From: Gammaproteobacteria bacterium
GTDB lineage: Bacteria; Pseudomonadota; Gammaproteobacteria; SZUA-140
Direction: 5' to 3'
DNA: 64,000 nt
NCBI GenBank assembly: GCA_021648525.1
Contig: JAKISP010000008.1
Coordinates: 13,744-77,743, forward strand
Positions 48,695 through 58,565 of this stretch are shown here, piece after piece. The position numbers were made by a program, and so were the translations under genes. The notes under the pieces are model-generated. The model was given only the letters and a program-made list of their open reading frames with translations, had not been told where the DNA came from and did no database searches. Numbering within the stretch: position 1 is the stretch's first letter; the number at the start of each line of letters is the position of its first letter.

Positions 48695-50587
48695 CTAGCG
48701 ACCACGTAAAAACAGTTTATCCAGTTCAACCATACTCATTTGAGTCCAGGTGGGTCGCCCATGGTTACACTGCCCACTGCGCTCGGTACGTTCCATGTCA
48801 CGCAGTAGTGCGTTCATCTCCGGCAAGGTCAGGATACGGTTTGCACGCACAGAACCGTGACAGGCCATTGTCGCCAACACCTCATTGAGTCGTTCCTGTA
48901 CCCGCACACTTGCACCGTAGGTGTTGATATCCGACAGCACATCACGCACCAGCGTCTCAATATCGGCATCACTCAACAGCGTCGGCACCTCACGCACCAC
49001 GATTGTTTCGGGCGCAATGCGCTGAATATCAAACCCCAGTGAGGCAAAGACTTCGCTAAACTCCTCGGCTAATGCTGCCTCTTTTTGATTCACCGCAATC
49101 GACAACGGCACCAACAACGGCTGAGATTTGATGCCACCATCACTGAAGGTCTGTTTCATCCATTCATATGTGATCCGCTCATGTGCGGCGTGCATATCCA
49201 CCAGCACCAGTCCCGCTTCATTCTGAGCCAGAATATAGACCCCATGCAGCTGCGCGATGGCAAAGCCGAGTGGCGGCACTTCCGAGGCATCTTGATCAGA
49301 GACATAACCATCAACCAGCGGCTGCGCCACCGTGCTCTCTGCAAGCACCTTATAGACATCGTTCAACGGCTCATTCGTCCTTAACGAGATGTTTGACTGT
49401 CGCGTGTAGGCGGCAGCGCCAGCACGACCAACTGGCTGAGGGGTCGTTAACGGCATCACCGCTGCACCCTGAGAAGGCAGAGGATTAGCCCCCATCGTTG
49501 GCATTGATGGTGCCGTCGCGCCTTCATTTTCAGCATCACCCGGCCGCACATCCGCCAGTGAACGGTGGATTGCACTAAAAATAAAGTCGTGAGCCAGACG
49601 CCCTTCACGAAAACGTACTTCATGTTTAGCTGGATGGACATTCACATCCACCTGTTCAGGGGACATCTCAAGGTTCAGCACAAAAGCAGGGTGACGCCCG
49701 TGATAAAGCACATCACGGTAGGCCTGGCGAATGGCATGGCTCACCAGTTTGTCGCGAATCACACGGCCATTAACAAAGAAATACTGCATATCTGCCTGAC
49801 TGCGTGAAAATGCCGGTAATGCCACCCAGCCCCATAGGCGCAGACCGGCAGCTTCATACTCGATCGCCAGTGCATTGTCTCTAAATGGCTTGCCACAGAT
49901 CGCCTCGACCCGCTCAATGTATTGATCTGTGCTGGTCGCTGGGCGCAGTGACAACACAACTCTTTGATTGTGCTTCAGTTGAAAACCCACCTCAAAATGA
50001 CTCAATGCAATCCGCTTGACCACCTCTTCCAGATGCCCAAACTCAGTCTTCTCTTTACGCAGAAATTTACGCCGTGCAGGGGTATTAAAAAAGAGGTCTC
50101 GAATTTCGACTGTCGTGCCCAGCGGGTGCGCACACGGTGCGGCATCTTCCTCTGGCGCATACCCCTCACTGCTCACCCGCCAACCGCTCTCATCCCCCTG
50201 TTGCCGCGATATCAGGCTCATCCTTGCAATAGAGGCGATACTGGGCAACGCCTCGCCACGAAAACCCAGTGTGACGATACCATCCAGATCACCCGCATTA
50301 ATAATTTTACTGGTTGCATGGCGGTTTAGCGCTAAAAGAAGATCCTCACGGTGAATCCCGACGCCGTTGTCTCTCACCCGAATCAGGCGCGCACCACCCT
50401 GTTCAACGTCGATCTCTATCTGAGTCGCACCCGCATCCAGACTGTTTTCCAGCAACTCCTTTACCACCGAAGCCGGTCTTTCTACCACCTCACCCGCGGC
50501 AATTTGATTCGCCAATTGAGCGGTAAGATGATGGATACGTCTGGCAGGCGTATGTTGTATCTCAGAGACGGAATTTGAATTAGACAT
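48695..50587 (-). CDS. mutL: DNA mismatch repair protein MutL
   Basis: GHKL ATPase motifs (ELLENSLDAGAT, DNGVGI), the transducer domain, and C-terminal dimerisation motifs (QLHGVYIL). 630 aa. Confidence 0.9.
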   Translation of the reverse strand: MSNSNSVSEIQHTPARRIHHLTAQLANQIAAGEVVERPASVVKELLENSLDAGATQIEIDVEQGGARLIRVRDNGVGIHREDLLLALNRHATSKIINAGDLDGIVTLGFRGEALPSIASIARMSLISRQQGDESGWRVSSEGYAPEEDAAPCAHPLGTTVEIRDLFFNTPARRKFLRKEKTEFGHLEEVVKRIALSHFEVGFQLKHNQRVVLSLRPATSTDQYIERVEAICGKPFRDNALAIEYEAAGLRLWGWVALPAFSRSQADMQYFFVNGRVIRDKLVSHAIRQAYRDVLYHGRHPAFVLNLEMSPEQVDVNVHPAKHEVRFREGRLAHDFIFSAIHRSLADVRPGDAENEGATAPSMPTMGANPLPSQGAAVMPLTTPQPVGRAGAAAYTRQSNISLRTNEPLNDVYKVLAESTVAQPLVDGYVSDQDASEVPPLGFAIAQLHGVYILAQNEAGLVLVDMHAAHERITYEWMKQTFSDGGIKSQPLLVPLSIAVNQKEAALAEEFSEVFASLGFDIQRIAPETIVVREVPTLLSDADIETLVRDVLSDINTYGASVRVQERLNEVLATMACHGSVRANRILTLPEMNALLRDMERTERSGQCNHGRPTWTQMSMVELDKLFLRGR

Positions 50588-50832
50588 CGATATTTTTTCA
50601 CCACATTTTCAATGCTGCCATTATAAACAAATCACCCAGAAAATATCTTTTTCTCTCGCTCTGGCCTGGTCAAAGGGTTCATTGCACCTGGGATGCATCA
50701 AAAAGCTAGCAACTCTTTAATTTTTATTAAGCATGATTTAGAGCCTGGAACAGGTCATTGTCCATCAGGCCAAGATGATAGATAAATTAAAATGCGCTGT
50801 CGCTTAACGATAAACGGATAATATTCGATTTA

Positions 50833-51339
50833 TTATCGGTAACTTATGTGGACGCCCTTCACTCCTGCTAGTGCACTAACACCACCTGCCACAGTCAGAA
50901 TGATCAGTCCTGGACCAAGGAATATAGTAGCAAGACCCGCCCCAAAGATTCCAATTGCTAACGCCCCATACTCCTCATACGCCACTTTCTCTGCATTCTC
51001 TCCCGCAGCCGCGGCATTTTTCACTTTCTGCCCGGCGAATGTCGCATCAATCACAATCGCACCCACCGCACTCACGCTGGCGATCTTCAGAAAACGTTTC
51101 AGGCGCAGGACCTCACTGAGGCGGGTGAGATCAATGCTGTGTTTACGACTGCGCAGCGCTCGCATACCGCGCCTGGTGCTTTTCAGGACGACGTTGCTAC
51201 GAGCCATGCTGCTGACTTCACTTTTGTAGACTTTGCTCAGTTTTTCGTGGGCCGGTTGCATTTTATCAATTTTGATTTTTCTTTGTTCTCGCGCAGGGAT
51301 CAGAAATTGATTCCTTGAGTCAGTCAGGTTGATATTCAT
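50833..51339 (-). CDS. Paralog 3 (168 aa) of the glycine-zipper membrane-domain family: an orphan C-terminal module
   Basis: Shares RKIKIDKxQPAHEKLSxVYKSEV...KRFLKIAxVSAVGAIVIDATFAGQKVKNAAAAGENAEKVAYEEYGAL with the 334-aa protein. It ends in the hydrophobic GxxxG-rich segment IGIFGAGLATIFLGPGLIILTVAGGVSALAGV. Its start overlaps the upstream ORF stop by ATGA. Confidence 0.6.
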   Translation of the reverse strand: MNINLTDSRNQFLIPAREQRKIKIDKMQPAHEKLSKVYKSEVSSMARSNVVLKSTRRGMRALRSRKHSIDLTRLSEVLRLKRFLKIASVSAVGAIVIDATFAGQKVKNAAAAGENAEKVAYEEYGALAIGIFGAGLATIFLGPGLIILTVAGGVSALAGVKGVHISYR

Positions 51340-51740
51340 AACTTGACACCGAGTACTTTGGTGAGAAAAAATAAAGCAATCAGACTTCCCACCGTTAAAA
51401 AGCCAATAAACAGATATAAATAACTTAAAATAATATCGAGTAGCGGGGCATTGCCACGAAAATTATAACCATTAGTGACATCGTGTATGACATGATGGCG
51501 TTTGCTGTGGATAAGATTTTTAAACACAATAAGCCCAGAATAGTAACCGGTTCGAACTACCGTTCCCATGAGTAATGGCAATGGTATGATGCGATCATAT
51601 TCAGGGAACATTGCATCATATTTTCGTGTTAGCCTAAAATACAGAAAGAGAAGCAAAATCATACCGACCAAACAACCAAAACCAAAACCAAGCGCAAGTA
51701 TCGACGCAAGCCATTCTTTAGTTACGGGCGACATTCCCAT
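51336..51740 (-). CDS. Small two-TM membrane protein (134 aa), paralog of 52194..52592; candidate immunity/partner protein
   Basis: TM1 LASILALGFGFGCLVGMILLLFLYF and TM2 LYLFIGFLTVGSLIALFFLTKVLG. About 50% identical to the 132-aa paralog (shared YFRLTRKYDxMFP, YxFRGNAxLxDIIL). Confidence 0.6.
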   Translation of the reverse strand: MGMSPVTKEWLASILALGFGFGCLVGMILLLFLYFRLTRKYDAMFPEYDRIIPLPLLMGTVVRTGYYSGLIVFKNLIHSKRHHVIHDVTNGYNFRGNAPLLDIILSYLYLFIGFLTVGSLIALFFLTKVLGVKL

Positions 51741-51772
51741 GCTTAACTCCCACTGTTACCTTTACAATATGC

Positions 51773-52132
51773 TCACTGTACTTCTGACAGGAGTTGTTTT
51801 TTCCGTTCAGCGGGCAGCGCTAGCTCGTAGGCTGAGATCTGTTCGTAGAGTGACTTGCCAAATTCACGTCCACCTTCGGCACCCAATAGCGCACTAACAC
51901 CACCTACGACAGTAAGAAGGATCAGTCCTAGGCCAATAAAAGTAATAGCAGCAAAGGTCACAAAAGTGGCTGCTCCGATACCCACAATCAACGCTCCATA
52001 CTCCTCATATGCCACCTTCTCCGCATTCTCCGCATTCTCCGCATTCTCCGCATTCTCGCCCGCAGCACGGGCATTTTTCACTTTCTGCCCGGCGAATGTC
52101 GCATCAATCACAATCGCTCCCACCGCACTCAC
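51773..52132 (-). CDS. Paralog 2 (119 aa): N-terminally truncated orphan copy of the glycine-zipper module carrying an (ENA)n repeat expansion. It may be an untranslated fragment.
   Basis: Homology to the other copies begins at LKIARVSAVGAIVIDATFAGQKVKNA. The upstream frame is open but non-homologous. The C-terminus is GIGAATFVTFAAITFIGLGLILLTVVGGVSALLGAEGGREFGKSLYEQISAYE. Confidence 0.45.
   Translation of the reverse strand: MSAVGAIVIDATFAGQKVKNARAAGENAENAENAENAEKVAYEEYGALIVGIGAATFVTFAAITFIGLGLILLTVVGGVSALLGAEGGREFGKSLYEQISAYELALPAERKKQLLSEVQ
52016..52060. repeat. In-frame 9-bp tandem repeat (ttctccgca x4 plus one degenerate unit) encoding ENAENAENAENAE
   Basis: Seen directly in the sequence. 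The other two paralogs carry a single unit (GENAEK). Confidence 0.85.
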
Positions 52133-52193
52133 TCTGGCGATTTTCAGAAAATATTGGGGACGCTGGGCATCGTTGCATCGGGCAGATTGGCAC

Positions 52194-52592
52194 TCATAAG
52201 TCGATGCCTAATATTTTCGTGAGAATAAAAAATGTAACTGCACTGACCAACATAACTGAGCCGAAAAAAAGCGTCGAATAGCATAAAATAATATCGAACA
52301 GCGATGCATTGCCACGAAAATCATATCCTCCCGTTATATGACGAATGCGCTCATTACGCTGACTGAGGTTTTTACAAATAATGCACCACATATAGCGTCC
52401 GGCACGGTTAATCTCCCCCTGTATCCCGATGCCATCAGTAAGATTAGCATGACCGGGAAACATCGGATCGTATTTCCGGGTCAGTCGAAAATACATAACA
52501 GGGAGTAGAATCATTCCCATCATCCCACCAATACCACCTCCCAAAACAAGCAGCCCCCCCAGCAGCTCTTTCATTTCTAATGACCATGCCAT
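52194..52592 (-). CDS. Small two-TM membrane protein (132 aa); candidate immunity/partner protein
   Basis: TM1 LLGGLLVLGGGIGGMMGMILLPVMYF and TM2 LCYSTLFFGSVMLVSAVTFFILTKILG. Paralog of 51336..51740. Confidence 0.6.
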   Translation of the reverse strand: MAWSLEMKELLGGLLVLGGGIGGMMGMILLPVMYFRLTRKYDPMFPGHANLTDGIGIQGEINRAGRYMWCIICKNLSQRNERIRHITGGYDFRGNASLFDIILCYSTLFFGSVMLVSAVTFFILTKILGIDL

Positions 52593-52621
52593 ATCTAATC
52601 ACTTACTCACTGTTTTTAAGC

Positions 52622-53626
52622 TTACAGCACGCTCAAGGTTGCCTCGGACAATAATTGTTTCTTCCGTTTGGATGGCATGGCCGCCTCGTAGGTCGAGATT
52701 TGATCATATAACTGTTTACCAATCTCTCGGCCAAGTTCTGCGCCTACCAATGCACCAATGCCCCCGGCGACAGCAAGAATGATTAATCCAGGACCAAGAA
52801 ATGCAGTGGCAAAGCCCGCACCCAATATTCCAAGCACTAACGCCCCATACTCCTCATACGCCACTTTCTCCGCATTCTCACCCGCAGCCGCGGCATTTTT
52901 CACTTTCTGCCCGGCGAATGTCGCATCAATCACAATCGCTCCCACCGCACTCACTCTGGCGATTTTCAGGAAACGTTTCAGACGCTGAACATCATCGGTA
53001 TTGGTAAGGTCAATGCTCTGTTTGCGGCTGCGCAGCGCTCGCATGCCGCGTTTTGTGCTTTTCAGGGCGGCGCTGTTATGAGCCATGCTCCTGACTTCGC
53101 TTTTGTAGACGTTGCTGAGTTTTTCGTGGGCCGGTTGCACTTTGTCAATTTTGATTTTGTTGCGCTGTTTCTTTGGTGCATTTTTCCATTCCACCAGGCT
53201 GTCGTTGTACACTTGCAGCGCCTGAATATACCCCTTGCCGCGCGACCTGGAGGCTCCCAGTAGCCCGCCGGCAAAGGCTTTGAGGGTATCGTCATTTTGC
53301 GGCAATGTATCGACAAGGGTGCTGAGGGCGAGGATTTCATCGCCGTTGTATTGTTGTAGCAGTTTATTCAGGACATCCGCTTCCTGTGGGGTAAACCGTG
53401 GCCCGATGTTGACCTGCGGTACCTTGCGTTTGAGTTGTTGCTCCAGGTTATCGGGAATCATCAGGCATTCATTCGGAAACAGGGGGCGATTGGGGTAGTG
53501 TCCGTTGTATTTTGCCAGTATCTTGCAGATGGAAGCCTGCTCTGCAGCGGGTGCTTCATGGCAATGTCGGGCGACGAAATCAGGTAATGTTTCGGATTGA
53601 TTATCGGTGACATACAGTGTCGGCAT
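52622..53626 (-). CDS. Full-length member (334 aa) of the glycine-zipper membrane-domain family: unknown N-terminal ~200-aa domain, a conserved linker, and a C-terminal Gly-zipper TM segment
   Basis: The C-terminus VLGILGAGFATAFLGPGLIILAVAGGIGALVGAELGREIGKQLYDQISTYE is preceded by the linker shared with the two downstream orphan copies. No signal peptide. Confidence 0.6.
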   Translation of the reverse strand: MPTLYVTDNQSETLPDFVARHCHEAPAAEQASICKILAKYNGHYPNRPLFPNECLMIPDNLEQQLKRKVPQVNIGPRFTPQEADVLNKLLQQYNGDEILALSTLVDTLPQNDDTLKAFAGGLLGASRSRGKGYIQALQVYNDSLVEWKNAPKKQRNKIKIDKVQPAHEKLSNVYKSEVRSMAHNSAALKSTKRGMRALRSRKQSIDLTNTDDVQRLKRFLKIARVSAVGAIVIDATFAGQKVKNAAAAGENAEKVAYEEYGALVLGILGAGFATAFLGPGLIILAVAGGIGALVGAELGREIGKQLYDQISTYEAAMPSKRKKQLLSEATLSVL

Positions 53627-53811
53627 GACGCTTTTCCTTACGCTGAAATGAAACGGCCTTAAACAAGGCTGTAAAATGACTAAAATAGTAGCACGAAACC
53701 GTTAACCTGGAAAACGCAGTTGCGCGTAAAAATTCACAAGCAACTGATATTAATAGTAATTTTTAAAAACAGGCAGTCACTTTGCTAGTAATGAGTGATT
53801 TTCCAGATACG

Positions 53812-53978
53812 CTAGGAGCCTGTCGGACTTAGGTGATCGTCGCGAGAGAAAGCCATTTTGAGACCATTTTTTCGATCATTTGAGGCGAATATTGAGCATA
53901 TTTAACGAAATTGATCGGAAAAATGGACCGAAATGGCTTTTTCGCAGTAGATTCATCCTAAGTCCGACAGGCTCCTAG
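53812..53978. mobile_element. 167-bp near-perfect palindromic element with 22-bp terminal inverted repeats (MITE/REP-like)
   Basis: Left end ctaggagcctgtcggacttagg (53812..53833). Right end cctaagtccgacaggctcctag (53957..53978). Internal arms are also self-complementary (gccattttgagacc / ggaccgaaatggc, tcgatca / tgatcga). It lies in the amiB to cassette intergenic region. Confidence 0.6.
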
Positions 53979-53997
53979 TACATGATCAAGGCTAATG

Positions 53998-55371
53998 CTA
54001 ACCACCGCCAAAAGCTGGGATTTTTAACACCTGCCCAATCCGCACTCTGTCACCAGGCAGTTTATTTTCTGAACGAATACTCGCAATACTGACATGATAA
54101 CGTTGCGCAATCTCTGAAAGCGTATCACCACTGGCGATGGTATGCTGACGCGCTTTAATCGCATAAAGTGTTCCTGGTGGCGCGTTCTTAATAAAGTACT
54201 CACGCACACCATTCAACAGCGCCTTAGCCAACACACGCTGATGCCGCTTATTTCTCAATTTTTTTTCTTCAGTGGGATTAGAGATAAAAGCGGCTTCCAC
54301 CAATATAGAGGGTATATCCGGCGACTTCAGCACCGCAAATGCGGCTTGCTGAACCTCTTTTTTATGCAGTTTACCCAGCGGCTTCAGCTCCCGCAACATC
54401 TCTCTACCCGCTTCATAACTAGCTTGCTTGGTGGCAGTCTGCGAAAGATCAAGCAGCACTCGCGCTAACATGTTGTCTTTGTCATCCAGACTAACGCCGC
54501 CAATCAGGTCGGATGCATTTTCTTTTTCTGCTAACCACCGGGCGGCTTCACTAGAGGCACCATTTTCAGATAAAATATAGACCGATGAGCCATAAACACG
54601 TTTATCCTGAAAGGCATCCGCATGGATTGAGATAAACATATCAGCTCGATTATCACGCGCCTTTTGAGTACGCTGACGTAAACTCAAAAAATAATCACCA
54701 TCACGAATCAACAATGGCCGCATCCCTTTCTCTTTCTCGATTAACGCCGCCAGTTTTTTCGCGATCGCAAAAACAACGTCTTTTTCATGTGTACCACGTG
54801 GCCCCAACGCGCCAGGGTCTTCACCACCGTGACCCGCATCAATCGCAATAACGAGATCTCTTAATTCAGGTTCAACACGTAGAGAACGTGCTTTTGTACT
54901 GTTTTTTGACACGACTGGCTTGCCAGCAGCAGACTTTGATTCATTTTTTTGACGCCCGCCATGCAACAGATCAACCACCAGGCGGTGCCCATACTTCTTA
55001 TAAGGCTTGAGCAGAAAACTTTTGAATTTAGTTTTATCGTGCAGGTCGAGCACCACCCGTAAATCTTTATTAGGTCGAACCGCGCTGCGAATATTTTTCA
55101 GAATAATGTCTTTGCCAGCGGGCTTCACCATCTTGCCGCTCAGACGCGTATTTTTGAAATCGATCACCAGACGAGGCGGATTGAAGAGTTTAAACACCTT
55201 ATATTCAGCGCTTGCACTACTCACATCGAACACTACTCGGGTGTTATCGGGTGCTTGCCAGGTGCGCACGCCATCGACCTGAGTACTCGCTGCAGAGCAG
55301 ACCCAGGGTAGTGCTAACAAGAATATGAGACTCAGTTTTTTTATCACGCTTGAGACCTGTCTTTTTTTCAC
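53998..55371 (-). CDS. amiB: N-acetylmuramoyl-L-alanine amidase (AmiB/AmiC-type) with an AMIN domain and a C-terminal LysM
   Basis: Amidase_3 motifs (IAIDAGHGGEDPGA, ISIHADAF), N-terminal signal peptide and AMIN domain, C-terminal LysM (HTIASGDTLSEIAQRYHVS). 457 aa. Confidence 0.85.
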   Translation of the reverse strand: MKKRQVSSVIKKLSLIFLLALPWVCSAASTQVDGVRTWQAPDNTRVVFDVSSASAEYKVFKLFNPPRLVIDFKNTRLSGKMVKPAGKDIILKNIRSAVRPNKDLRVVLDLHDKTKFKSFLLKPYKKYGHRLVVDLLHGGRQKNESKSAAGKPVVSKNSTKARSLRVEPELRDLVIAIDAGHGGEDPGALGPRGTHEKDVVFAIAKKLAALIEKEKGMRPLLIRDGDYFLSLRQRTQKARDNRADMFISIHADAFQDKRVYGSSVYILSENGASSEAARWLAEKENASDLIGGVSLDDKDNMLARVLLDLSQTATKQASYEAGREMLRELKPLGKLHKKEVQQAAFAVLKSPDIPSILVEAAFISNPTEEKKLRNKRHQRVLAKALLNGVREYFIKNAPPGTLYAIKARQHTIASGDTLSEIAQRYHVSIASIRSENKLPGDRVRIGQVLKIPAFGGG

Positions 55372-55478: not shown

Positions 55479-55949
55479 TCACTGCATCTGCTGGATGATT
55501 TTACGCCCTTTTGCACTAGCGGCACACACTGACAGCTCACGCGCACTGCCACAATAAGACAATGTTAATTCGATATCTGCCTTTCCAATCGCACCCGCGC
55601 CACGCTCAGGCCACTCCACCAGACAGAGCATGTCGTCAGAAAAGTAATCACGAATCCCCATATACTCAAGCTCCTCCGGATCGCCAAGACGATACAGATC
55701 AAAGTGATGCAGCAGACCATCGACTAGTGGATATGACTCCACCAGCGTGTAAGTCGGACTTTTAACCGCCCCCGTATAACCACGCGCATGCAAGAACCCT
55801 CGCACCCATGTCGTCTTTCCCGCTCCCAATGGGCCATGCAAAAAAATCACGCCGCCGCCTGTAATAACAGAAGCAAAAGTTGCGCCAAGTGCCTCCATCT
55901 GTTCAGCAGTGGCAATATGCCAGCTTTTTTTTATCTCAGACACCCTCAA
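55479..55949 (-). CDS. tsaE: tRNA threonylcarbamoyladenosine biosynthesis protein TsaE
   Basis: P-loop GPLGAGKTT plus the SPTYTLVESY and HFDLYRL motifs. 156 aa. Overlaps the nnr stop. Confidence 0.85.
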   Translation of the reverse strand: MRVSEIKKSWHIATAEQMEALGATFASVITGGGVIFLHGPLGAGKTTWVRGFLHARGYTGAVKSPTYTLVESYPLVDGLLHHFDLYRLGDPEELEYMGIRDYFSDDMLCLVEWPERGAGAIGKADIELTLSYCGSARELSVCAASAKGRKIIQQMQ

Positions 55950-57427
55950 AGCCCATTCACTATCGCACGTAGATGCGGCATCAAATCACTCGCCAGCAAA
56001 CCTCGTTCACCCGCCAGGGCTGCGCGGTCAGCGACACTCGCGTGCAGCCAGGCGCCAGACGTTGCCGCGTCAGACAGATTCAGCCCCTGAGCCATCAGGG
56101 CAGCGATCACGCCCGTTAGCACATCGCCCATGCCGCCACTGGCCATGCCGGGATTACCCGCATCACACAACGATACGGTGCCATTTTGATCGATCACCAG
56201 CGTACCGGCCCCCTTCAATACCACCACGCCACCATATTGCCGCTGCAATGCATCAGCGGCACAAAAGCGGTCTGCCTGTATCTGACTCGTCGACATATTT
56301 AACAGCCGTGCTGCCTCCCCCGGATGCGGCGTCAACACCCAGTCATCACGCATAAACGGTTCGCGTGCCAGCAGATTTAACGCATCGGCATCAACCACCA
56401 ATGGCACATCACTCGTCAGCACCGTGTCGAACATTGCCATTCCCCACGCGGCGGTGCTGAGCCCAGGCCCAATCGCAATCACATCTGCACGCTTCATCAA
56501 TGAACGTAGTGCAGCAGCGTCCGCCACCGCATGCATCATCAATTCAGGCTGCGATTGATTGAGCACGGCGGCGTGTTCACCCGCGGTGGCGATTGAAACC
56601 CGCCCGGCCCCACAACGCAGCGCAGCCTCCCCTGCCAACTGAATCGCACCACTCATCCCCGGCGCGCCGCCAATCAGCAGCACATGACCACAATCACCCT
56701 TATGGGCGGAACGTACTCGGCGCGGCAACAAAACCGATAGCCGACCCGAATCGATTCGACTCGCCGCAGGCGCTACCTTTTCATACACCGCCTGTGGTAC
56801 TTCGAGGTCATCAAATAAAATATCACCGCAGCACTCAGGCCCACCCGCCGTTAACATTCCCTGCTTCAAACCAATAAAGCTGATCGTTACCGCTGCCTGC
56901 ACCACCACACCCATCGCAGCACCACTATTCGCATCCAGGCCCGATGGAATATCAATTGCCAGCACCGGAACAGATGCCGCATTAAGTGCCACAATCGTAT
57001 CCTGCCAATGCCCTTTCACATCACGGTTTAACCCACTGCCCAGCATTGCATCCACTATGACATCGCTGTTATCCAACAAACCAGCACGCATTGGCTGCAC
57101 CTCAATATCCACCGTAACCATCGCCTCATACGCAAGCCTGGCATCACCTTTCAGCGAGTTAACATCCACTAGCAGTGCAACGGACACTTCACGCCCAGCT
57201 GCCTGCGCCAGCCGTGCAATCACGAAGCCATCACCGCCATTATTGCCGCCACCACAAATCACGGCGATGCGCCGTGCCTGCGGCCAACGTGAGGACAAAA
57301 CAGCAAAGGCAGCCGCACCGGCACGCGTCATCAATTCAATCCCGGGAATAGAAAATTCTTCGATTGCGATGCGATCAAGCTCGCGCACGTCAGCAGCGCG
57401 GTACAATGTGTGTGGTAACAAACTCAT
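55946..57427 (-). CDS. nnr: Bifunctional NAD(P)H-hydrate repair enzyme Nnr (epimerase + ADP-dependent dehydratase). The start is taken at MSLLPHTLYRAADVREL; the ORF-track N-terminal extension to 57565 is probably not translated.
   Basis: YjeF-N motif CGGGNNGGDG and the C-terminal carbohydrate-kinase-like domain (GPGLS, GDVLTG). Operon order nnr-tsaE-amiB as in E. coli yjeF-yjeE-amiB. Confidence 0.85.
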   Translation of the reverse strand: MSLLPHTLYRAADVRELDRIAIEEFSIPGIELMTRAGAAAFAVLSSRWPQARRIAVICGGGNNGGDGFVIARLAQAAGREVSVALLVDVNSLKGDARLAYEAMVTVDIEVQPMRAGLLDNSDVIVDAMLGSGLNRDVKGHWQDTIVALNAASVPVLAIDIPSGLDANSGAAMGVVVQAAVTISFIGLKQGMLTAGGPECCGDILFDDLEVPQAVYEKVAPAASRIDSGRLSVLLPRRVRSAHKGDCGHVLLIGGAPGMSGAIQLAGEAALRCGAGRVSIATAGEHAAVLNQSQPELMMHAVADAAALRSLMKRADVIAIGPGLSTAAWGMAMFDTVLTSDVPLVVDADALNLLAREPFMRDDWVLTPHPGEAARLLNMSTSQIQADRFCAADALQRQYGGVVVLKGAGTLVIDQNGTVSLCDAGNPGMASGGMGDVLTGVIAALMAQGLNLSDAATSGAWLHASVADRAALAGERGLLASDLMPHLRAIVNGL

Positions 57428-57446
57428 ACGCGCTATCATAGCGCTT

Positions 57447-58565
57447 ATGCAAGACGCAAAAAACCCACCGACCACTTTATCCGCCAAAGCACTCGCAGAA
57501 CTGGCCGACAAAATCCGCGCCTGGAGTAAGGCACTTGGTTTTGAGGCGATGAGCATCAGCGACACCGATCTTGCAGAGGATGAGACTCACCTGCTCAACT
57601 GGCTTGATGCTGGCCACCATGGCGAAATGGAGTACATGGCACGCCACGGCACCAAACGCAGCCGTCCGGCCGAGCTGGAACCCGGCACTTTGCGGGTGAT
57701 TTCGGTACGGATGGATTATCTGGTCAATGATCAACATCAGGCAGAAGATTGCCTTAACGACCCGACACTCGGCTACGTATCACGCTATGCAATGGGGCGC
57801 GACTACCACAAGGTGTTGCGCCAACGGCTGCAAAAACTCGCCACAAAAATTGAAGAAGCAGTCGGGCCATTTTCTTATCGTGCCTTTACCGATAGCGCAC
57901 CGGTACTGGAAAAGGCACTGGCACAGAAGTCCGGCATGGGGTGGATCGGTAAACACACCAACCTGATCAACCAGCAGGCAGGCTCGTGGTTTTTCCTGGG
58001 TGAACTCTATACCGATCTACCGCTGCCGATCGACCCACCTGGCGGAAACCACTGCGGCACCTGCAACGCCTGTATCGATGTCTGCCCCACCGCTGCAATC
58101 ATCGCACCGTATAAACTCGATGCACGTCGCTGTATCTCATATCTCACCATCGAACTGCACGGCAGCATCCCGCTGGAATTTCGCCCATTGATTGGCAATC
58201 GCATTTATGGCTGCGATGACTGCCAGCTATTTTGCCCATGGAATCGCTTTGCACAACTGACACGCGAGCAAGATTTTCAGGTGCGGCATCAACTTGATAG
58301 CAGCACGCTGATAGAACTATTTGAGTGGGATGAACAGCAGTTTATTGATAACACAGCAGGCTCTGCCATTCGCCGCATTGGACATGAGCGCTGGCTGCGC
58401 AACATCGCAATCGCACTGGGCAATACACCGACACAACCTGAGATCATCGCAGCACTAAAGCAGCGCCGCGATGATTCATCAGAGATGGTACGTGAACATA
58501 TTGAGTGGGCGCTGGAACAGCACCCACAACAACCGAACACCTCACCATCCCGGAATGATATCTGA
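57447..58565 (+). CDS. queG: Epoxyqueuosine reductase. The start is taken at MQDAKNPP; the ORF-track extension from 57057 overlaps nnr on the opposite strand.
   Basis: Two ferredoxin-type motifs (CGTCNACIDVCPT, CDDCQLFCPWN), a C-terminal HEAT-like region, and the N-terminus LAELADKIRAWSKALGFEAMSISDTDL. Divergent from nnr as in E. coli. Confidence 0.8.
   Translation: MQDAKNPPTTLSAKALAELADKIRAWSKALGFEAMSISDTDLAEDETHLLNWLDAGHHGEMEYMARHGTKRSRPAELEPGTLRVISVRMDYLVNDQHQAEDCLNDPTLGYVSRYAMGRDYHKVLRQRLQKLATKIEEAVGPFSYRAFTDSAPVLEKALAQKSGMGWIGKHTNLINQQAGSWFFLGELYTDLPLPIDPPGGNHCGTCNACIDVCPTAAIIAPYKLDARRCISYLTIELHGSIPLEFRPLIGNRIYGCDDCQLFCPWNRFAQLTREQDFQVRHQLDSSTLIELFEWDEQQFIDNTAGSAIRRIGHERWLRNIAIALGNTPTQPEIIAALKQRRDDSSEMVREHIEWALEQHPQQPNTSPSRNDI

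Follow-up and report, generated by a model that had tools for sequence, protein, structure and literature searches.

A 167-bp palindrome downstream of amiB as a probable MITE with IS1182-type ends and a strand-biased, covarying core

Introduction

Between amiB and a cassette of five open reading frames in a gammaproteobacterial metagenome-assembled genome (MAG) lies a palindrome of 167 bp, and its place raises the question of whether it took part in the arrival of the cassette, acts on the neighbouring genes or is a mobile element of its own. A sequence-only reading of the window, by which we mean the whole stretch of 64,000 nucleotides that was analysed, had offered three answers: a MITE or REP-like element, an integration scar or recombination site used by the cassette, and a structured RNA or strong bidirectional terminator. 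We conclude that the palindrome is very probably a MITE that is mobilised in trans by ISAzo1-like transposases of the IS1182 family into the tetranucleotide CTAG, and that it is a passenger at this locus. The MITE part of the first answer is thus upheld by the ends of the element, which are those of IS1182-family insertion sequences, by its CTAG flanks, by a family of relatives with near-identical copies and by a pair of filled and empty sites (locus L036) from a sister class.

Results and discussion

Architecture and fold of the element

The element occupies positions 53812–53978, and a profile search found this one copy only in the 64-kb window, scoring 149.9 bits on the + strand versus 50.9 bits on the – strand. 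The perfect 22-nt inverted repeats described in the sequence-only reading are real: CTAGGAGCCTGTCGGACTTAGG at 53812–53833 and CCTAAGTCCGACAGGCTCCTAG at 53957–53978 form arms that are 100% complementary. With up to three mismatches allowed, the 22-mer had no further match in the window and none in 100 dinucleotide shuffles of it. Each repeat is made up of a CTAG (53812–53815 on the left, 53975–53978 on the right), which is either a duplicated target or the outer edge of the repeat itself, and of a terminal inverted repeat proper, which is GAGCCTGTCGGACTTAGG on the left (53816–53833, + strand) and CCTAAGTCCGACAGGCTC in + strand letters on the right (53957–53974, – strand). The two CTAGs enclose 159 bp. 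The inner complementary segments named in the same reading were recovered by the repeat finder as well, and all 167 nt indeed fold into a single long hairpin, with a predicted energy of –95.7 kcal/mol (z = –14.4) for RNA of the + strand and –83.6 kcal/mol for RNA of the – strand; DNA parameters gave –54.2 and –49.8 kcal/mol.

The upper hairpin is formed by an oriented, non-coding core (53834–53956, + strand), in which an alignment of 32 copies revealed variable, covarying stems and conserved internal loops. The left internal-loop motif TCGCGAG (53840–53846, + strand; family consensus TAGCGAG), with its nearly invariant columns G31, C32, G33 and A34, faces the right motif CGCAGTAG (53943–53950, + strand) in the consensus fold, where G133, C134, A135 and G136 are nearly invariant. 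Since the right motif is not an inverted copy of the left one, the element has a polarity. The apical module (53879–53909, + strand) consists of TTTGAGGCGAATAT, the loop TGAGC and ATATTTAACGAA; its ATA/TAT stem columns are invariant, and covariation appears as exchange among GAATAG/CTATTT, GCATAG/CTATGC and CCCCATAG/CTATGGGG. With 167 bp and no open reading frame, the element is as short (MITEs stay below about 300 bp) and as devoid of coding capacity as a MITE should be, and substitutions across the 32 copies follow the structure, as paired covariation, rather than codons.

Ends shared with IS1182-family insertion sequences

The terminal repeats recur at the ends of full transposons. At locus L118, the end CTAGGAGCCTGTCGGACTTAG agrees with the window repeat in 21 of 22 nt and is followed by an IS1182-family transposase gene (301.5 bits on NCBIfam NF033551, cut-off 270). 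Locus L082 holds a 1551-bp insertion sequence with CTAGCAGCCTGTCGGACTT at both ends, encoding a 456-aa transposase with DUF772 and DDE_Tnp_1 domains (355.8 bits on NCBIfam IS1182, cut-off 270). Both the annotated ISAzo1 of Aromatoleum aromaticum (L192) and an IS1182 from a P. aeruginosa plasmid (L193) end in CAGC(C/G)TGTCGGACT and carry CTAG on both flanks, and the window repeat also resembles ends in L040. As a group, these ISAzo1-like elements (A. aromaticum EbN1 plasmid 2, P. aeruginosa plasmids, L082 and L118) share the terminal sequence (C/G)AGsCTGTCsGACT as well as CTAG flanks on both sides, but they measure 1.5 kb and encode the DUF772 and DDE_Tnp_1 transposase, whereas the window element has no open reading frame. 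Beyond the first 20 nt or so, any resemblance of the core to the ends of insertion sequences is weak at best; a profile search of five full-length ones returned a weak right-arm similarity of 13 bits, mostly due to the terminal repeat. An origin of the core by internal deletion of an insertion sequence is therefore conjectural.

No IS1182-family transposase was found in the 64-kb window by tblastn. We infer that an IS1182 transposase catalyses the transposition and that a partner insertion sequence resides in the source genome. The DDE transposase of such an ISAzo1-like element, encoded elsewhere in the genome, would bind both terminal repeats and insert the MITE into the rare CTAG, duplicating either CTAG (4 bp) or its central TA. 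In this manner the element would have come to lie in the spacer, 19 bp behind the end of amiB, without any part in the arrival of the cassette. Read-through from amiB, if any, would add a very stable 3′ hairpin without a terminator T-tract to the transcript, and the element may thereby or otherwise affect amiB expression.

A widespread family of copies

The sequence-only reading had proposed counting copies and had held that an element unique to this site, with no target-site duplication, no relatives and no transcription, would be a plain terminator hairpin. Family members were found readily, and the element is clearly not unique: more than 100 homologous copies occur in public genomes and metagenomes, mostly 166–169 bp long and without exception intergenic. 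Scanning one genome per species with the terminal pattern CTAGGAGSCTGTCSGA yielded at least 120 loci in many phyla, with many matches at contig ends. Pairing of ends gave at least 68 short elements, the dominant class measuring 166–169 bp with the CTAGs counted; at least 37 short elements fell between 155 and 176 bp, again with a mode at 166–169 bp. Thirty-one copies aligned end to end with the window copy (about 67–79% identity; a comparison of full-length homologues gave 70–79%), giving the alignment of 32 copies (A2) used throughout, all of them intergenic. Their hosts are Gammaproteobacteria (Pseudomonadales, Sedimenticola, Methylococcales, Chromatiales, Halomonas, Endozoicomonas), Betaproteobacteria (Nitrosomonas, Burkholderiales) and Desulfuromonadales, and sub-families track host groups; one aligned copy comes from a Bathyarchaeota MAG and may be mis-binned. 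A 22-mer specific to the window picked up another 53 metagenome loci, each with a copy or a derivative, none of which overlapped the window when the window was checked as an empty allele.

Metagenome Ga0316208 contained seven copies on different long contigs with different flanks, 94–99% identical to each other and 85–86% identical to the window copy. Near identity in the face of different flanks points to recent amplification. Two to six copies were also found inside single loci (e.g., L012, L035, L058 and L104). Among 72,556 plasmids, one carried the element, namely pMPC6-328K of Pseudomonas sp. MPC6 (L001), where a full-length copy with 71% identity begins and ends its similarity exactly at CTAG...CTAG and differs in the terminal repeats by compensatory changes. 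On this plasmid (L001:3164–3500) the MITE abuts a truncated IS1182-family element, the junction being a CTAG common to both; the truncated element retains the end CTAGCAGCCTGTCGAACTTGAGC and a 32-aa fragment of the transposase C-terminus. Blastn searches of 5,426 complete E. coli genomes gave no match at the sensitivity of that program, and phage records gave none either.

Length variants were observed as well. Four loci (L132:3091–3292, L152:47–236, L163:1249–1438 and L168:2700–2892) carry an extra segment of 23–35 bp within the core, which is GGGCCTCGGTACCCCCTTGAGGGGTG in L132, L152 and L163; such segments are small hairpins themselves. In L134, L150, L172, L002 and L023 the element is reduced to a hairpin of about 50–90 bp comprising the two ends only. 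Furthermore, a sister class with the same IS1182-type ends and unrelated cores was found in L036, L037, L045, L107, L110, L064, L078 and L119 (141–143 bp between core end motifs, about 147 bp with CTAGs), and other sister classes in L053 (154 bp with CTAGs) and in L019, L024, L091 and L119 (201–215 bp between end motifs). This pairing of shared ends with different cores in several size classes suggests that a single transposase clade gave rise to several MITE families, each independently.

Insertion into CTAG

About 80% of the family copies are bounded by CTA/GGAG...CTCC/TAG (slashes mark the boundaries), and the exceptions resemble point changes. CTAG is the rarest palindromic tetranucleotide of the window, with 75 occurrences where base composition predicts 245. 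In tandem copies a single CTAG serves both neighbours (L035, L119, L043, L045 and L061), and the CTAG of several copies overlaps the TAG stop codon of the neighbouring gene. The clearest trace of insertion is a filled site in L036, ...gaggcc CTAG[GAG..CTC]CTGG tggaat..., the paralogous empty site of which reads ...gaggcc CTAG tggaat.... This pair fits duplication of the 4-bp CTAG or of TA, the two being indistinguishable because the outer bases of the element extend the palindrome. A second, less clean pair was found in L053, with CTAG..CTAG at the filled site and TCAG in the empty paralogue. Both pairs derive from the 147- and 154-bp sister classes, which share only their ends with the 167-bp class, and for copies of the 167-bp class itself no empty site was found, including a search with the flanks of the pMPC6-328K copy.

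The window copy has CTAG on both sides, matching the 4-bp direct repeats documented for the IS1182 family, for instance for ISPse1 (PMC3281130). In the young copies of Ga0316208 the left and right tetranucleotides often differ. More generally, the outermost CTAG is frequently found as CCAG, CTGG, CTAA or CTAT in copies that are otherwise 97–99% identical (element ends in L133, L135, L158, L162, L169, L174 and L145; L036:345–348). Changes from CTAGG to CCAGG at element ends are reminiscent of the outcome of very-short-patch repair (Vsr).

An oriented core conserved in structure

RNAalifold predicted one consensus hairpin of 66 pairs for the 32 copies, 48 of which show changes on both sides. Paired cells amounted to 93.6% versus 72.3% in shuffles, and the covariation score was 0.58 versus 0.20 in shuffles and at most 0.15 with slid partners. 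Conservation of primary sequence is concentrated in asymmetric motifs, which are TAGCGAG on the left, the facing motif on the right and GAG opposite CC, and in the apical module (family form TTTGAGGCGAATAG – loop – CTATTTAACGAA), while the stems between motifs vary. The conserved internal loops are purine-rich and differ between the two arms.

The structure is also biased towards one strand. Among non-Watson–Crick cells, 179 were G:U and 25 were A:C, a roughly sevenfold higher tolerance of G:U(T); when the pairs predicted from both strands were pooled into one union, the counts were 183 and 58. As G:U pairs occur in more than 20 columns, the bias is not a legacy of one or two ancestral positions. 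The consensus energy was –95.9 kcal/mol on the strand corresponding to the window + strand and –57.0 kcal/mol on its complement. This strand folded better in all 32 copies (mean –97.3 versus –79.6 kcal/mol) and, in an independent metagenome set, in 16 of 18 distinct copies. Mutation bias was considered as a source of the G:T excess and rejected: in 35 of 51 copies the better-folding strand coincides with the locally C-rich one (16:35, p = 0.011; copies across L001–L184 plus the window, not all independent), a modest tendency under which replication-linked bias would favour A:C over G:T. The weak orientation bias relative to local GC skew would fit a link to replication.

Strand-specific covariation of this kind implies that the family hairpin has been under selection on one strand as a single-stranded form, RNA or ssDNA, in the lineages that propagate it. 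With respect to flanking genes the orientation is unbiased (upstream 12 same and 18 opposite, downstream 14 and 16), which argues against a simple co-transcribed RNA role at each site. An oriented, covarying and strand-biased core exceeds the needs of simple transposase recognition, and to this extent it counts against the account of the element as a plain MITE. Also weighing against that account are the single copy and the lack of an IS1182-family transposase in the 64-kb window, the fruitless search for an empty site of the 167-bp class and the unequal flanks of young copies. Structural conservation in MITE-like repeats as such is already known, bcr1 and ERIC with their compensatory changes being the precedents (PMC3184786). 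We put forward tentatively, as a possibility somewhat doubtful at present, that purifying selection maintains the 159-bp core as a functional single-stranded structure in several bacterial classes. While propagating, the element may be used in the form of a folded single strand, or the core may encode a mobile structured RNA so far absent from Rfam.

The amiB–mutL locus and its cassette

All genes around the element lie on the – strand. Upstream of it in the direction of transcription are nnr/yjeF (55946–57565), tsaE (55479–55949) and amiB (53998–55371; amidase_3, AMIN and LysM domains by Pfam), the true start of which is probably at 55347, judged by homologues. The AmiB protein is 99.8% identical to MCF6323452.1 over 449 aa (from a Gammaproteobacteria MAG), and close AmiB relatives carry the label Thiotrichales. 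Downstream follow the cassette (50822–53698) and mutL (48695–50587). The five cassette ORFs, which encode proteins of 334, 132, 119, 134 and 168 aa, are located at 52622–53626, 52194–52592, 51773–52132, 51336–51740 and 50833–51339; none of the proteins matched Pfam or PADLOC, and neither resource revealed an integrase or recombinase gene. The sequence-only reading had placed the element exactly between the amiB stop and the start of the cassette. In fact, it abuts neither: 19 bp separate it from the amiB stop codon (53998–54000, – strand), and on the other side 186 bp lie between its end and the first cassette gene, which has its start codon at 53626.

Comparison with the nearest relatives (L122–L131, 78–89% nucleotide identity) delimited the insertion. 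In these relatives the amiB–mutL spacer holds a gene for a 164-aa response regulator on the opposite strand (intact in L122–L127, L129 and L130) or, in L128, other DNA. Homology of the window to the relatives ends at the amiB stop, restarts at 50821–50728 and begins again upstream of mutL, and the stretch 50728–50821 is what remains of the response-regulator gene, namely 94 bp of its 3′ end (82% identity). Insertion of the cassette thus went together with the loss of most of this gene. The homology breaks identify about 3.2 kb (50822–53997) as inserted DNA, with the element beginning 19 bp inside. Other copies of the cassette are homologous to the window as far as 53698, and 113 bp lie between this point and the element. 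The element therefore sits in a spacer of about 300 bp (53699–53997) that is part of neither amiB nor the cassette. An empty site was not found at this locus, the spacer of the relatives L122–L131 not being alignable past the amiB stop.

The cassette has relatives of its own. Its 334-aa protein matches L3J89_03860 of that Gammaproteobacteria MAG at 100% identity, and the MAG also contains two paralogues with 83–85% identity, paralogous cassettes being tagged L3J89_10620 and L3J89_15225; the protein family is seemingly limited to Thiotrichales-like MAGs. Homologues of the 334-aa gene in L185–L190 adjoin, in arrays, genes with TPS domains (two-partner-secretion/CdiA-like), and the cassette may be a polymorphic toxin–immunity or orphan-module array. 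The smaller ORFs partly repeat the 3′ part of the 334-aa gene (50862–51279 and 51601–52171 versus 52644–53129; nucleotide level, 65–78% identity via homologues in L185 and L191), so that the cassette is internally modular and repeated.

Other explanations of the palindrome

If the palindrome were a recombination site or the scar left by integration of the 3.2-kb cassette between amiB and mutL, its position less than about 300 bp from one end of the segment 50822–53997, which is absent from the closest relatives, would be readily explained. However, neither a second copy nor a half-site was found at the far boundary (~50822) or elsewhere in the window, and the seven loci with cassette homologues (L185–L191) are without a copy; the homologous elements instead occupy dozens of unrelated intergenic contexts in many phyla. 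Together with the gap between cassette homology and element and the lack of a recombinase gene in the cassette, this renders the second answer of the sequence-only reading extremely improbable. The third had combined a hairpin, which is real and conserved by covariation, with a terminator, possibly acting in both directions, that would insulate amiB from the cassette. A very stable hairpin so close behind the amiB stop codon would suit such a role, but neither strand has a run of T past the stem (cgtatctg and tacatgat), a terminator scan was blank there, and the element is thus not a canonical intrinsic terminator. The 75-bp stem also lies far beyond the usual geometry of intrinsic terminators, and copies of the family are found in all orientations and contexts, between divergent genes as well. 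We consider a terminator function highly unlikely.

The RNA part of that answer deserves more weight. It takes the palindrome as a structured ncRNA gene or an RNA regulatory hairpin that is only incidentally bounded by transposon ends, for example by stabilising mRNA 3′ ends, as a target of RNase III or as a riboregulator acting on the transposase, and it is compatible with mobilisation as a MITE. The doubly changed stem pairs, the excess of G:U over A:C, the constancy of the better-folding strand and the purine-rich internal loops all speak for it, as do the bcr1 and ERIC precedents. Against it, the window copy and eight other copies had no match in Rfam 15 at E ≤ 1, and the better-folding strand of the window copy is antisense to both amiB and the cassette. 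The family is also without orientation bias relative to flanking genes. In addition, no promoter is conserved, no sigma-70-like promoter was found inside the window element, and a promoter within the element would be unable to transcribe the whole hairpin. Taken by itself, an RNA gene or regulatory hairpin therefore appears unlikely to us, and we retain the reading of the palindrome as a MITE moved by IS1182-type transposases.

Relation to known repeats

A literature search with the terminal sequence returned nothing relevant, and the family was absent from the papers searched. By description, one of the closest known elements is MITEPye1 of Paracoccus yeei (ISfinder; PMC11578231), a 159-bp non-coding, intergenic, long stem-loop with 4-bp direct repeats and terminal repeats of about 18 bp near those of the IS1182 family, reported at 1–3 copies per chromosome. 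Its length is exactly that of the window element between the two CTAGs. The likeness is drawn from its published features, and its host is an alphaproteobacterium, a class that contributed none of the 32 aligned copies. The ISMac2-derived MITEs of Methanosarcina acetivorans (PMC3852290) likewise have an IS1182-family parent, measure 160 and 169 bp, are multicopy and combine inverted repeats of 25–26 bp with a 4-bp direct repeat; they belong to an archaeal host and are again likened by their published features. ERIC/IRU of Enterobacteria and bcr1 of the Bacillus cereus group are 127–155-bp imperfect palindromes that are intergenic, conserved across species and kept as hairpins by compensatory changes (PMC3184786), but they have other ends and target duplications and no known IS1182 partner. 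Homology of the window element to the 127-bp enterobacterial ERIC/IRU consensus gained no support, as the blastn search of the 5,426 complete E. coli genomes had no hit. Correia elements (NEMIS) of Neisseria are MITEs of about 100–155 bp with terminal repeats and a short palindromic TA-containing target, and they form RNA hairpins on co-transcription. They differ in their terminal repeats, their restriction to a single genus and their target TA, and the IHF site and promoters of Correia elements were not evident in the window element.

The alternative of a REP-like element, which the sequence-only reading had coupled to the MITE, did not hold. REP and BIME sequences are palindromes of 20–40 nt with a conserved 5′ GTAG, often clustered and associated with the RAYT Y1 transposase. 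They were rejected as relatives: the element is 167 bp long, has the ends CTAGGAG and occurs as a single copy in the window. Chunjie was rejected on account of its 9-bp direct repeats.

Conclusions

For the amiB–mutL locus, these results make the palindrome an ordinary element and remove the idea that it marks the acquisition of the cassette. The family to which it belongs is a MITE found widely in environmental Gamma- and Betaproteobacteria as well as Desulfuromonadales, with IS1182-type ends and a rare CTAG target, and as many copies at contig ends indicate, the repeat disrupts metagenome assemblies. It offers unusually clear evidence of selection on the hairpin of one strand. Should the selected form be an ssDNA intermediate or a mobile RNA, a further mechanism would be added to a poorly studied family of insertion sequences. 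If the single-strand reading is true, IS1182-type transposition, or else the replication and repair of such elements, would include a single-strand step so far overlooked; if the core encodes a mobile RNA, the family would be a candidate for RNA catalogues.
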